DNA of 64,000 nt from a phage. Of the stretch, positions 11,647 to 33,208 are shown piece after piece (position 1 is the first letter of the stretch; every line of letters starts with the position of its first letter). A program made the translations under genes and the position numbers. The stretch lies in the sequence record PV419677.1. The stretch is one strand, 5' to 3'. The notes beneath the pieces are model-generated. The model ran no database searches and was not told the DNA's origin. It saw only the letters and a list, made by a program, of their open reading frames with translations.

Positions 11647-13953
<2,307 letters not shown>

Positions 13954-13982: not shown

Positions 13983-15962
13983 ATGGCTTTATTATCCCCG
14001 GGCATTGAGCTCAAAGAAACAACGGTACAAAGCACTGTTGTTCGTAACGCGACGGGTCGTGCGGCGCTGGTTGGTAAATTCCAGTGGGGCCCAGCTTTCC
14101 AGGTAACTCAAATTACAAACGAAGTTGAACTTGTTGATTTGTTTGGTGGTCCGAATAATGAAACAGCAGATTACTTTATGAGTGGGATGAACTTCCTGCA
14201 ATATGGTAATGACCTCCGTACTGTACGTGTTGTTAACCGTGACGAAGCTAAAAACGCATCCCCTATTGCTGGCAATATTGAAACTACCATCGTAACTGCT
14301 GGTACAAACTATGCTGTCGGTGATGTTATTCAGGTTAAACACAACCAGACTGTTGTTGAACCGGCTGGCCGTGTGACCAAGGTCGACGTTGATGGTAAAA
14401 TTCTGGCAATCTTTATTCCTACAAATAAGATTATTGCATTTGCCAAAACTATTAACCAGTATCCTAATTTAGGTAGTGCATGGACCGCGGAAGTTACAAC
14501 CACTTCTTCTGGTGTATCTGGTACCATCACCGTTGGGAAAATTGTTACCGATTCTGGCATTCTGTTGACTGAAGCAGAAAACAGTGAAGAAGCAATTACT
14601 TCTCTGGAATTCCAGGCATCACTAGCAAAATATGCAATGCCAGGTGTTGTTGCTCTTTATCCAGGTGAAATCGGTTCGACTTTGGAAGTTGAAATCGTAT
14701 CTAAAGCTGACTTTGAAAAAGGCGCAGCTGCAAATCTGAATATTTTCCCAGGCGGCGGAACGCGTGCTTCTGTGGCTCGTGCCGTGTTTAACTATGGCCC
14801 GCAGTCTGAAAACCAATATGCAATTATCGTTCGCCGCGATGGCGCAATCGTCGAAAACGTTGTTTTGTCTACCAAACAGGGCGAAAAAGATGTTTACGGT
14901 AATAACATTTACTTGGATGACTACTTTGCAAAAGGTACTTCCAACTACATCTATGCAACATCTCGCAACTGGCCTGCAGGCTTCAGTGGTATCATCAATC
15001 TGTCTGGTGGTATTTCTGCAAACGATAAGATTACCGCTGGTGATTTGATGCAAGGTTGGGACCTGTTTGCTGACCGTGAAGCACTGCATATTAACCTGCT
15101 TATCGCTGGTGCTGTTGCCGGTGAAGGTGATGCGACTGCTTCCACTGTTCAGAAACACGTGGTTTCTATTGCTGACGAACGTCAGGATTGTCTGGCATTT
15201 ATTTCCCCGCCGAAAGGTCTGTTGGTTAACGTTCCTCTGACCCGTGCAGTGGATAACCTGATTGACTGGCGTACAGGTGCTGGCGCATTTGATACTGATA
15301 ACATGAATATCAGCACGACTTATGCAGCGATTGATGGCAACTATAAATATCAGTATGATAAATATAATGACGTTAACCGTTGGGTTCCTCTGGCAGCTGA
15401 TATGGCTGGTCTGTGTGCTCGTACTGATGATGTTTCTCAGCCTTGGATGTCTCCGGCTGGTTATAACCGCGGTCAGATTCTGAACGTTCTGAAATTGGCT
15501 GTTGAACCACGTCAGACCCAACGTGACCGCATGTATCAAGAAGCTATCAACCCGGTTGTTGGTTTCGCAGGTGGTGATGGTTTTGTTCTGTATGGTGATA
15601 AGACTGCAACTAAAGTTCCATCTCCGATGGACCATATTAACGTTCGTCGTCTTACGAATATGCTGAAGAAAAATATCGGTGATGCATCCAAATATAAACT
15701 GTTTGAGCTTAACGATAACTTCACTCGTGCATCATTCCGTATGGAAACTTCTCAATACTTGGATGGTATTCGTGCACTTGGTGGCATTTATGAAGGTCGT
15801 GTAGTTTGTGATACTACTAACAACACCCCGGCGGTTATAGACCGAAATGAGTTTGTTGCTAGCATATATTTTAAACCAGCAAGGTCGATAAATTTTATCA
15901 CGCTTAATTTCGTAGCAACAAGCACGGGCGCTGATTTTGATGAGTTGATTGGAGCGAACTAA
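13983..15962 (+). CDS. gp18: Tail sheath protein gp18
   Basis: 659 aa as in T4; TATAAATA at 13946; strong RBS. Confidence 0.9.
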   Translation: MALLSPGIELKETTVQSTVVRNATGRAALVGKFQWGPAFQVTQITNEVELVDLFGGPNNETADYFMSGMNFLQYGNDLRTVRVVNRDEAKNASPIAGNIETTIVTAGTNYAVGDVIQVKHNQTVVEPAGRVTKVDVDGKILAIFIPTNKIIAFAKTINQYPNLGSAWTAEVTTTSSGVSGTITVGKIVTDSGILLTEAENSEEAITSLEFQASLAKYAMPGVVALYPGEIGSTLEVEIVSKADFEKGAAANLNIFPGGGTRASVARAVFNYGPQSENQYAIIVRRDGAIVENVVLSTKQGEKDVYGNNIYLDDYFAKGTSNYIYATSRNWPAGFSGIINLSGGISANDKITAGDLMQGWDLFADREALHINLLIAGAVAGEGDATASTVQKHVVSIADERQDCLAFISPPKGLLVNVPLTRAVDNLIDWRTGAGAFDTDNMNISTTYAAIDGNYKYQYDKYNDVNRWVPLAADMAGLCARTDDVSQPWMSPAGYNRGQILNVLKLAVEPRQTQRDRMYQEAINPVVGFAGGDGFVLYGDKTATKVPSPMDHINVRRLTNMLKKNIGDASKYKLFELNDNFTRASFRMETSQYLDGIRALGGIYEGRVVCDTTNNTPAVIDRNEFVASIYFKPARSINFITLNFVATSTGADFDELIGAN

Positions 15963-15966
15963 GACT

Positions 15967-15994
15967 TTACTTCTGATTTAACTTGGGTTATAAT
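15967..15994 (+). promoter_or_regulatory. Sigma70-like promoter for the HNH endonuclease gene
   Basis: CTTTAC, 16-nt spacer, TATAAT. Confidence 0.45.
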
Positions 15995-16017
15995 GCGCGT
16001 ATAATATAAATACGCGC
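15995..16017 (+). promoter_or_regulatory. Perfect 8-bp palindrome GCGCGTAT/ATACGCGC enclosing late promoter TATAAATA (16005-16012), directly before HNH RBS
   Basis: Inverted repeat read directly; late motif sits in loop/right arm. Confidence 0.5.
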
Positions 16018-16029
16018 AAGGATTTACAA

Positions 16030-16635
16030 GTGATTATTTCTAAATTTGTTGAAGTTCAAATACGAAATCATGCAAAGTGGTGGAGCGAATACTTAGGTAA
16101 AACTCTAACATATCATGATGTGATTTCTGTACCAGTTGAACAAATGCCAGATAATAGTAATAAAAAGATTGAATGTTCCTGTGATGAATGTGGTGCACAT
16201 TTTGAACGTGGTATTCAGTTGCTTCGGCGCGTTGATAAACATTTATGTAAGACCTGCGCAAGAAAAGATGTGGGTGCAAAAGTTTCTGTAAAAATGGCTG
16301 GAGTATCAAGATTTGATTTACGAGGAGAAAACCACCCTAGATGGAAAGGTAATCGCAAAGAATATGATTTGTATGCCCAGCGCATTCATGCATTAACTCG
16401 TGGAAAACATCTAAAGAATATTTGGTCAACATGGGAAAATGCAGATAAGATAGGAAAATGTGGAGAAGAAGGTGCATATCAGCTTGACCATAAAGTTTCT
16501 ATTGCATATGGATTTTATAATCATATACCAGAGACAGTTATCGCTTCGCTCAACAATTTAGAAATAGTCACTTGGGAATCTAATAGGTCCAAAGGAAAAT
16601 CAAATAGTATTGACTTATGGGATATATTATCCTGA
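16030..16635 (+). CDS. HNH-family homing endonuclease (mob-like), GTG start
   Basis: 201 aa; Cys cluster CSCDECG...CKTC; C-terminal HNH motif ...YQLDHKVSIAYGF...NNLEIVTWESN; RBS AAGGA 7 nt before GTG. Confidence 0.75.
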   Translation: MIISKFVEVQIRNHAKWWSEYLGKTLTYHDVISVPVEQMPDNSNKKIECSCDECGAHFERGIQLLRRVDKHLCKTCARKDVGAKVSVKMAGVSRFDLRGENHPRWKGNRKEYDLYAQRIHALTRGKHLKNIWSTWENADKIGKCGEEGAYQLDHKVSIAYGFYNHIPETVIASLNNLEIVTWESNRSKGKSNSIDLWDILS

Positions 16636-16659
16636 CAGTAAATGTAATTAAGCAGTAAA

Positions 16660-16712
16660 CCGTAGAACCATTATACAATGCTATAAATAAAAGCATATCA
16701 TCGGTTCTACGG
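16660..16712. repeat. 10-bp inverted repeat CCGTAGAACC/GGTTCTACGG with 33-nt loop carrying TATAAATA (plus) and TATAAT with MotA-like box (minus)
   Basis: Read directly; lies between HNH gene and gene 19. Confidence 0.6.
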
Positions 16713-16770
16713 ACTCCTCAGAGCTCCTCCAGCGACCTAAATACATTTATTGATGAATCATATTACCTAG

Positions 16771-16778
16771 TATAAATA
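16771..16778 (+). promoter_or_regulatory. T4-type late promoter TATAAATA (gene 19)
   Basis: Exact motif about 50 nt upstream of gp19 ATG; leader contains palindrome CGCGTACGCG (16793-16802). Confidence 0.6.
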
Positions 16779-16830
16779 CATGCATCAGGGACGCGTACGC
16801 GCGACCTGTGTCTATAAAGAGGATTCCTTA

Positions 16831-17322
16831 ATGGAACTTACTGATATATCCAGAGCCTTCGAATCCGGCGACTTTGCTCGTCCTAACCTGTTCGAAGTCG
16901 AAATCCCATTCCTGGGTAAAAACTTTGCTTTCCATTGTAAAGCAGCCCCGATGCCAGCAGGCATTGTAGAAAAAGTTCCTGTCGGTTACATGAACCGTAA
17001 AATCAACGTTGCGGGCGACCGTACATTTGATGACTGGACTATTACGATTTATAACGACGATGCTCATAAAGTTCGTCAAGCAATTGTTGATTGGCAAAAC
17101 CTGTGTCACGGTATGACTAACGAAATCACCGGTGCAGCTCCTGCTGATTATAAGAAAACCGCTACTGTCCGCCAGTTCCATCGTGATGGCAAGACCGTTA
17201 CGAAAGAAGTTGTTATTACCGGCATGTGGCCAACCAACGTTGGGGAAGTCCAGATGGATTGGGATTCGAACAACGAAATTGAAACGTTCGAAGCAACGTT
17301 CGCAATTGACTGGTGGGAATAA
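16831..17322 (+). CDS. gp19: Tail tube protein gp19
   Basis: Start trimmed to ATG 16831 (RBS AGAGGA), giving 163 aa as in T4; ...RAFESGDFARPNLFEVEI... matches T4 gp19. Confidence 0.9.
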   Translation: MELTDISRAFESGDFARPNLFEVEIPFLGKNFAFHCKAAPMPAGIVEKVPVGYMNRKINVAGDRTFDDWTITIYNDDAHKVRQAIVDWQNLCHGMTNEITGAAPADYKKTATVRQFHRDGKTVTKEVVITGMWPTNVGEVQMDWDSNNEIETFEATFAIDWWE

Positions 17323-33196: not shown

Positions 33197-33208
33197 TATT
33201 TATAAATA
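33197..33208. promoter_or_regulatory. Bidirectional late promoter TATTTATAAATA (gene 26 leftward, gene 51 rightward)
   Basis: Overlapping TATAAATA on both strands between divergent genes 26 and 51. Confidence 0.55.

Follow-up and report, generated by a model that had tools for sequence, protein, structure and literature searches.

A probable free-standing HNH homing endonuclease gene between the tail sheath and tail tube genes of a T4-like phage

The window analysed here is a stretch of 64,000 nucleotides (nt) of phage DNA (sequence record PV419677.1), and positions given without a locus name refer to it. Its phage belongs to the T4-like genus Gaprivervirus. Between the tail sheath gene, gene 18, and the tail tube gene, gene 19, the window carries a cassette with a single plausible gene. 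The cassette is probably a free-standing HNH homing endonuclease gene from the family of T6 ORF19.1, a family that probably specialises in the 3' end of gene 18. The gene is not new to the databases; it is a new allele of a recorded but uncharacterised family, represented by T6 ORF19.1 and VR7 gp19.1. An initial annotation of the window had proposed a free-standing HNH homing endonuclease cassette at this place, and its core reading is supported by an optional gene whose product has an invariant D-H...N...N motif and an HNH-like fold. The two central features are as follows.

15963–16640, plus strand: insert proper, defined by alignment with insert-free Gaprivervirus; about 680 base pairs (bp), replacing about 20 nt of native sequence right after the gene 18 stop codon.

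16030–16635, plus strand: open reading frame (ORF) of 201 residues, from GTG at 16030 to TGA at 16635; putative homing endonuclease of the T6 ORF19.1 / VR7 gp19.1 family (PHROG 5104).

The first line of evidence is the presence of the gene in some phages and its absence from close relatives. The gap between genes 18 and 19 measures 868 bp (15962 to 16831), close to the 870 bp first estimated, and the neighbouring junctions are as short as had been described, at about 32 bp (17/18) and 57 bp (19/20). Over 1.8 kb around the gap, the window is 92–93% identical along the full length to VR7, RZ, DK-13 and TH57, and about 25 other members of the genus match the flanks only, at 92–94%. In insert-free members of the same genus (SP18, VR20, VR25, P8, MN01 and CJ20), the spacer measures about 205 bp and has no ORF. 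T4, whose site had been given as empty, has an intergenic region of 116 bp and no ORF. The equivalent insert of T6 replaces just 8 nt of the T4 sequence, ACGGTGCA. Alignment of the junction thus gives precise boundaries, and such a polymorphism at a precise site among close relatives is characteristic of free-standing homing endonuclease genes. It also shortens the insert, which had been taken to fill the whole gap from 15963 to 16830. Most T4-like phages do without the gene: in a wider sample, only seven of 77 diverse T4-like loci from IMG/VR have a family member between genes 18 and 19.

The gene follows the sheath gene in all contexts inspected (T6, UP19, KP185, STP4-a, Melin, phiM12 and RB5, and also VR26, Bp7, IME540 and X20). 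These contexts span Tequatrovirus, Dhakavirus, Jiaodavirus, Gelderlandvirus, Winklervirus, Acinetobacter phages and Sinorhizobium phage phiM12. Two types of insertion can be distinguished. Type A, to which the window belongs, encodes about 201 residues and abuts the gene 18 stop codon. Type B encodes about 227 residues and abuts the start of gene 19, with the native spacer kept upstream. The two types belong to one family but are distant, at 27–33% identity. Type B genes end 3 nt before the gene 19 ATG in VR26, IME540 and X20, and 37 nt before it in Bp7. Their ORFs are located as follows.

VR26, locus L003, 1170–1853: type B ORF.

Bp7, locus L016, 2301–2972: type B ORF.

IME540, locus L015, 2301–2984: type B ORF.

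X20, locus L017, 2016–2699: type B ORF.

The family itself is large. PHROG 5104, labelled “unknown function”, matches residues 1–200 of the protein (E 2.8e-75). By tblastn, the protein is 87% identical to VR7 gp19.1, annotated as a hypothetical protein, and 58% identical to T6 ORF19.1; full-length similarity and the shared place after gene 18 make it a member of their family. Homologues were found by tblastn in 241 phage records, and a profile search of 1.8 billion cluster representatives returned 5,106 of them at E <= 0.001. GenBank labels for the homologues disagree, ranging over hypothetical protein, HNH endonuclease, homing endonuclease, type II restriction endonuclease, holin and head morphogenesis protein. 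Literature searches for ORF19.1 or gp19.1 as a homing endonuclease, or for any characterisation of it, found nothing, and the family is not mentioned in a 2010 review of T4 mobile elements. The window has one copy of the family. The member in RB5, between genes 18 and 19 (locus L019, 2301–2915), was left unannotated in the RB5 record, as were those in RB10 and Aplg8.

The predicted GTG start of the ORF, given with its length of 201 residues by the initial annotation, has support from relatives. The opening codons GTG ATT ATT TCT AAA are kept in VR7, T6, UP19, KP185 and STP4-a, and the 1994 GenBank entry for T6 likewise notes GTG as the probable start of ORF19.1. It is preceded by a ribosome-binding site (RBS).

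16019–16032, plus strand: Shine-Dalgarno sequence AAGGA (16019–16023), 6-nt spacer and GTG start codon.

The history of the gene differs from that of its neighbours. Within Gaprivervirus, alleles are 88%, 56% and 29% identical to that of the window, while gp19 is 98% identical. RB5 is nearer to Klebsiella phage KP185 (64%) than to T6 (53%). Identity matrices, together with mosaic alleles in DCP80 and in the window, thus show a gene history incongruent with the flanking genes, as expected of lateral spread. The mosaic of the window lies within the ORF.

16255–16404, plus strand: mosaic patch in the ORF, codons 76–125; 61% nucleotide identity to VR7, compared with 94–98% for the rest of the cassette.

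The amino acid sequence of this patch resembles that of a more distant allele (P0002), which suggests that endonuclease alleles have recombined within the gene, in the stretch that links the zinc finger to the HNH domain. The ratio of nonsynonymous to synonymous substitution rates (dN/dS) is 0.22 against VR7 and 0.30 against T6, indicating purifying selection, and dN is zero over codons 126–201 against VR7. The DCP80 gene (locus L004, 1998–2648) is a chimera with an N-terminal half of Klebsiella-phage type, including an insertion KPLGAAKWGY, and a C-terminal half nearly identical to the window; in its record a stretch of N occurs in gene 19 and the sequence after it is unrelated, so the record may be mis-assembled.

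These patterns bear on another explanation, in which an accessory nuclease gene has long resided in the tail cluster, domesticated or never mobile, and its patchiness reflects repeated loss. Such a protein might nick DNA during replication or packaging, attack host or competitor DNA, or regulate genes 18 and 19. Its position right after the sheath gene in each lineage inspected, Acinetobacter phages and Sinorhizobium phage phiM12 included, would fit a resident of this kind, as would the purifying selection and a conserved hairpin architecture tied to gene 18. HNH genes resembling homing endonuclease genes can indeed become domesticated (PMC10448857). However, near-identical genomes differ by a sharp-edged block that includes the gene, and the allele phylogeny is incongruent with both gp18 and gp19. 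At least three unrelated alleles occur in one genus, two different insertion points are used, the gene is carried by only the seven of 77 diverse relatives mentioned above, and a PADLOC search gave no match for it. Long residence without mobility is therefore improbable.

The second line of evidence concerns the protein. Its C-terminal part has the motif YQLDHKVS...NNLEIVTWESNRSKG, as the initial annotation had noticed.

16486–16593, plus strand: coding region of the HNH (beta-beta-alpha-metal) core, D153-H154 ... N176 ... N185-x-x-K188.

When 83 diverse relatives were aligned, D153, H154, N176 and N185 were the sole invariant columns, against a mean column identity of 19%. The D-H...N...N pattern agrees with the HNH catalytic signature, in which a general-base histidine after an aspartate or histidine is followed by a structural asparagine and a metal-ligand asparagine or histidine. 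AlphaFold2 (AF2) models have a mean predicted local distance difference test (pLDDT) score of 86.9 at full length and 89.0 for the C-terminal domain. They contain strands 150–154 and 177–181 and a helix 182–188, which is the beta-hairpin and alpha-helix arrangement of HNH enzymes. The best structural matches of the C-terminal domain are Gme (4h9d), GVE2 (5h0o), T5 SciA (9qgx) and the Cas9 HNH domain; a Foldseek search of the PDB gave nothing significant, with Cas9 HNH domains on top at E of about 0.1.

Sequence profiles are less informative. No Pfam family matches the 201-residue protein, and the Pfam HNH families (PF01844, PF13395 and relatives) give no match even at E <= 10. Among the 83 relatives, weak Pfam matches to HNH and HNH_4 occur in 6 and 9 respectively, located on the D-H...N...N motif; these relatives score 15–19.5 bits, and the Pfam HNH cut-offs are 21.4–22. 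Comparison with HNH profiles, proposed earlier as a check on the assignment, thus failed for the protein itself but gave weak matches in its relatives. In one relative, this nuclease domain is accompanied by a NUMOD3 motif that is significant (E 2.7e-8). Coupling to NUMOD3 and location in a split gene are typical of homing endonucleases. In Klebsiella jumbo phage KP13-7, a 323-residue ORF (locus L018, 1832–2803) has a C-terminus homologous to the nuclease domain. It adjoins a fragment annotated as nrdA_2, upstream of nrdB, and sits inside a split nrdA gene, a classic homing endonuclease setting at a different locus.

The assignment follows from the fold, the D-H...N...N motif and the weak matches in relatives, not from curated profiles, and these agree on a predicted nuclease of HNH type. 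A zinc-finger protein that binds DNA or RNA but is no nuclease, or an endonuclease relic that has lost its activity, would account for Pfam, NCBIfam and PDB sequence searches that show zinc-finger-like similarity only, and for a C-terminal domain that lacks the Cys/His zinc site canonical in many HNH domains. Yet the HNH catalytic set comprises all the residues that are invariant in the 83 relatives, the predicted fold is closest to HNH enzymes, and dN against VR7 is zero over codons 126–201. A protein without nuclease function is very improbable on these grounds.

The N-terminal part has a cysteine cluster, which had been noted from the start and is mostly conserved in relatives.

16174–16257, plus strand: coding region of a zinc-ribbon or treble-clef finger, C49, C51, C54 ... 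C73, C76.

The zinc-ribbon pattern is C51-x2-C54 ... C73-x2-C76. In 30 relatives C51, C54 and C73 are invariant and C76 nearly so. Weak matches to DUF4379, a treble-clef family, occur in 20 of the 83 relatives. Profile searches of the PDB with the protein returned treble-clef and zinc-finger proteins only, and for the finger region only the treble-clef protein mS66. The N-terminal 86 residues match PHROG 12131, labelled “homing endonuclease” (E 8e-4). The finger is presumed to be a DNA-binding module, and the architecture is best explained as an N-terminal zinc-ribbon module followed by a divergent C-terminal HNH nuclease domain without cysteines.

The third line of evidence comes from the DNA on either side of the insert. 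Compared with insert-free P8, the window has 1 mismatch in 390 nt of gene 18, then 8 in 15 nt, and remains diverged from there to the insert. The divergence begins about 90 nt upstream of the gene 18 stop codon, and the block extends from about 15879 to about 16751; outside it, the window and P8 are nearly alike. The left edge falls at one position in pairs of carriers and non-carriers from five genera, including Tequatrovirus, Dhakavirus, Jiaodavirus and Gelderlandvirus. It lies in codons for a conserved motif of gp18.

15876–15914, plus strand: codons of the conserved gp18 motif, P-A-R-S-I-N-F-I-T-L-N-F-V in the window, synonymously recoded in carriers; predicted target or left edge of a conversion tract.

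16641–16751, plus strand: native intergenic DNA within the insert-linked haplotype block; native stem-loop 16660–16712 with linked variants, diverged at about 16713–16751.

On the right side, five of five carriers and six of six non-carriers are perfectly partitioned through the stem-loop and a segment of about 38 nt. Over this segment of native spacer (16713–16751) carriers read CTCAGAGCTCCTCCAGCGACCTAAATACATTTATT and non-carriers CTGTGGTTGATTCTGGGAAGCCATTATCTTGAGA, which are wholly different. It forms the right edge of the block: from GATGAATC (16752) onward, all carrier and non-carrier sequences are identical. Because both flanks diverge up to sharp edges, the travelling unit, about 15879–16751, is bigger than the ORF. 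A smaller mosaic patch lies beyond it, where the first 30 nt of gene 19 (16831–16860) have ten mostly synonymous differences from P8, VR20 and VR7, followed by almost none; SP18 and VR26 have the allele of the window. These differences were considered as an immunity or target polymorphism and rejected, as both alleles occur in carriers and non-carriers.

The left edge shows a pattern of its own. The conserved form of the gp18 motif among relatives is P-A-R-S-I-N-Y-I-T-L-N-F-V. The window reads AGG TCG ATA AAT TTT ATC, and insert-free relatives read CGC AGC ATC AAC TAC ATC. More generally, non-carriers have AGC/TCT ATY AAC TAC ATC and type A carriers TCG/AGT ATA AAT TWT ATH, with changes that are almost all synonymous. 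ATA AAT is present in 12 of 16 type A carriers and in 4 of 51 insert-free loci; a cruder automatic classification gives 12/7 against 4/47 (Fisher p = 5e-6, ignoring phylogeny). Carriers thus show what would be expected of resistant polymorphisms or a co-conversion tract around a homing site, in an association that does not take phylogeny into account. In T6 and RB5 compared with T4, the recoded patch is an island of 9–12 changes in 30 nt, and the roughly 60 nt between it and the insert have 3–4 changes, a pattern better explained by selection for a cleavage-resistant site than by simple hitch-hiking. The recoded S-I-N-Y-I codons therefore mark a probable target site or the edge of a conversion tract. 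Type B carriers lack the recoding of gene 18 apart from VR26, so their target is probably different.

The cassette also appears to bring its own control elements. Every sequence feature listed in the initial annotation lies where it was placed; the promoter boxes are present, but their spacing is 17–18 nt instead of 16.

15966–15994, plus strand: sigma-70 or T4-early-type promoter-like site TTTACT-17-TATAAT, 10 of 12 matches in the scan; predicted function.

15994–16018, plus strand: cassette stem-loop UGCGCGUAU / AUACGCGCA with a 7-nt loop, carrying the late-promoter consensus TATAAATA.

The upstream box can be read as CTTTAC (15965–15970), with 18 nt to TATAAT (15989–15994), or as TTTACT, as scored, with 17. 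We take the site to resemble T4 early promoters (GTTTAC ... TATAAT). Promoter-like sites in the region number 4, with 5.0 expected by chance. Since the count is not above chance, support for the promoter comes from conservation: the site is kept in VR7, DCP80 and UP19 (as GTTTAC in the last), and KP185 has TTGTAC-18-TACAAT at the same place.

The stem-loop has 9-bp arms at 15994–16002 and 16010–16018, a folding energy of -13.5 kcal/mol and a z-score of -2.6. TATAAATA lies within it at 16005–16012, as first described. This consensus is enriched in the window, with 19 copies against 4.6 expected. Elsewhere, at 33197–33208, a pattern search found two overlapping matches on opposite strands that form a palindromic late-promoter consensus. 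Every type A cassette has a hairpin at this place, with unrelated sequences in T6, STP4-a, KP185, Melin and phiM12. UP19 retains the stem but not TATAAATA, so it is the structure that is conserved, not the late-promoter motif. Insert-free genomes have a hairpin of their own right after gene 18, which in Acinetobacter phages is replaced by the cassette. This arrangement suggests that the hairpin of the cassette would stand in for the native one, in transcript end protection or attenuation, and would shield the endonuclease gene from the heavy transcription of the late genes. Transcription from the sigma-70-like site would begin within the 5' arm, and the resulting RNA could not fold into the hairpin. 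Translation is probably low, given the GTG start.

Downstream elements belong to the phage and not to the cassette. A 10-bp inverted repeat (16660–16669 / 16703–16712, z-score -4.35) has TATAAATA in its loop, and the leader of gene 19 follows.

16771–16830, plus strand: native gene 19 late promoter TATAAATA (16771–16778) and leader hairpin containing CGCGTACGCG (16792–16801), outside the cassette.

The elements at 16771–16830 are identical or near-identical in insert-free SP18, VR20, VR25, P8, MN01 and CJ20. Both the inverted repeat and the CGCGTACGCG palindrome reported earlier are real, but they are native, being found in insert-free relatives. The palindromes containing CGCG had been thought to bracket the insert; they do not, because the downstream ones, in the 18–19 spacer and the gene 19 leader, occur in insert-free phages. 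A search of 15700–17000 against Rfam at E <= 1 gave no matches.

Taken as a homing endonuclease gene, the cassette could spread in the following way. During a mixed infection, the enzyme would recognise the conserved S-I-N-Y-I codons (approximately ...AGC ATC AAC TAC ATC...) in gene 18 of a cassette-free phage. It would then nick or cut at these codons. Nicking is likelier, because there is a single HNH site, as reported for MobA, MobE and I-HmuI. Recombinational repair would copy a donor tract that starts at the target site, passes through the end of gene 18 and the cassette, and takes in about 110 nt of intergenic DNA beyond. Carriers would be protected by the synonymous changes in their own copies of these codons (ATA AAT T(A/T)T). 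The insertion point is exactly at the gene 18 stop codon, and the cassette supplies a stem-loop of its own to follow gene 18, a putative early-type promoter, a late-promoter-like site and a GTG start, which is weak. Gene 19 keeps its native leader and late promoter, so expression of the tail genes would be spared.

Several observations weigh against this account. No curated HNH profile of Pfam or NCBIfam reaches threshold for the protein, which matches sub-threshold zinc-finger models only, and the literature searched holds no activity data for the ORF19.1 family. The same locus is occupied across very deep divergence, as far as phiM12, whose gp18 is 36% identical, which would fit an old resident that is often lost equally well. 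The association of recoding with carriage was computed without allowing for phylogeny. Four non-carriers possess ATA AAT; they may be resistant or post-loss alleles, and the insert-free relative nearest to the Acinetobacter carriers, L056, is among these four. Conversely, the carriers RZ, DK-13 and TH57 lack ATA AAT and have only 2–3 changes in the patch. Finally, the recoded codons of T6, RB5 and KP185 (AGT ATA AAT) also make TATAAAT, with a possible promoter role.

The last two observations lead to a variant in which the cassette is mobile but the recoded patch is not its target. The patch would then be hitch-hiking donor sequence, or a late-promoter-like element TATAAAT(T), and cleavage would really occur at another place, such as the junction of the gene 18 stop codon with the intergenic DNA or the right edge near 16752. 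In Gaprivervirus, moreover, the diverged tract runs unbroken from the patch to the insert. Against this, the patch in T6 and RB5 is the island already described. In the window, UP19, QL01, STP4-a and Melin, the recoded form TCG ATA AAT gives GATAAAT, which is not the late consensus, and the left edge is the same in five genera. A cleavage site elsewhere is accordingly somewhat unlikely, though less so than a resident gene that does not move.

A broader reading has slightly less than even probability and is offered tentatively. The family may be a locus-faithful HNH lineage of reversed architecture that tracks a 13-codon sheath motif across Straboviridae and as far as phiM12. Its two types could then occupy opposite edges of one spacer, type A where gene 18 stops and type B where gene 19 starts. 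The replacement post-gene-18 hairpin in each cassette might preserve processing of the sheath mRNA. Were this broader reading true, crosses such as T6 x T4 would be expected to show localised marker exclusion in the neighbourhood of genes 18 and 19.

The surroundings of the cassette are those of a typical T4-like tail cluster. Genes 17 (12118–13950), 18, 19 and 20 (from 17380) have the same order as in T4. Gene 18 is annotated as tail sheath in the relatives VR7, SP18 and T6 and terminates with TAA at 15960–15962. The gene 19 ATG is at 16831–16833, and gp19 is 98% identical to gp19 of VR7, SP18 and VR26.

13983–15962, plus strand: gene 18 (tail sheath), 659-residue ORF, the upstream host gene of the cassette.

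16831–17322, plus strand: gene 19 (tail tube), 163 residues, the downstream host gene.

The next junction has an optional ORF as well. Between genes 19 and 20, Bp7 (locus L016, 3569–4150) and IME540 (locus L015, 3547–4128) have a 193-residue ORF. That of Bp7 is annotated “HNH endonuclease”, yet its weak Pfam matches are to SegE_GIY-YIG and NUMOD3, and it looks like a mis-annotated seg-type homing endonuclease. Alignment of the family profile with this ORF by hhalign showed no relationship. The portal gene is annotated as two pieces in Bp7 and in Ptacy1496 (locus L008).

Recognition of the cassette has several uses. Free-standing homing endonucleases influence where recombination ends and which markers are excluded in T-even phages. 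Since such elements are well known there, the surprise is limited; the additions are the HNH assignment, a defined travelling block and a concrete prediction of a target in gene 18. The family is widespread yet unnamed in Pfam and of “unknown function” in PHROGs, and recognising it as HNH homing endonucleases would correct annotations. It would also add a natural scaffold for a sequence-specific nickase or nuclease with a new domain order. For phage engineering, the 18/19 junction is flagged as tolerating about 0.7 kb of cargo.

The closest known systems are T6 ORF19.1 and VR7 gp19.1, which are full-length homologues of 201 residues, start with GTG directly after the gene 18 stop codon, and have a hairpin before the RBS. 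The allele of the window differs in being a mosaic, with codons 76–125 from another allele, and the T6 cassette differs in having a GC-rich UUCG hairpin and no sigma-70-like promoter. The small HNH nicking endonucleases Gme, GVE2 and T5 SciA, with the Cas9 HNH domain, offer the best structural likeness for the C-terminal domain.

With T4 MobA–E, the cassette shares HNH chemistry and the status of a free-standing, optional gene between conserved essential genes. MobA has a predicted GUG start, and MobA and MobE nick their targets (PMC2988022). The window protein is nevertheless not a member of the Mob family. Its DNA-binding module comes first and its HNH domain last, the reverse of the Mob order, and hhalign gives a probability of 0.14% for a relationship with MobE, the 10 aligned columns being the DH / HH motif. 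MobE also reaches the Pfam HNH threshold, and the window protein does not.

The closest parallel in genetic logic is provided by the T4 seg genes. Their target lies in a conserved neighbour gene away from the insertion point, carriers have resistant polymorphisms, and flanking DNA is co-converted (PMC2988022). The cassette of the window would follow the same logic as SegF, SegG and the other seg genes, although the Seg nucleases are GIY-YIG enzymes that make double-strand cuts.

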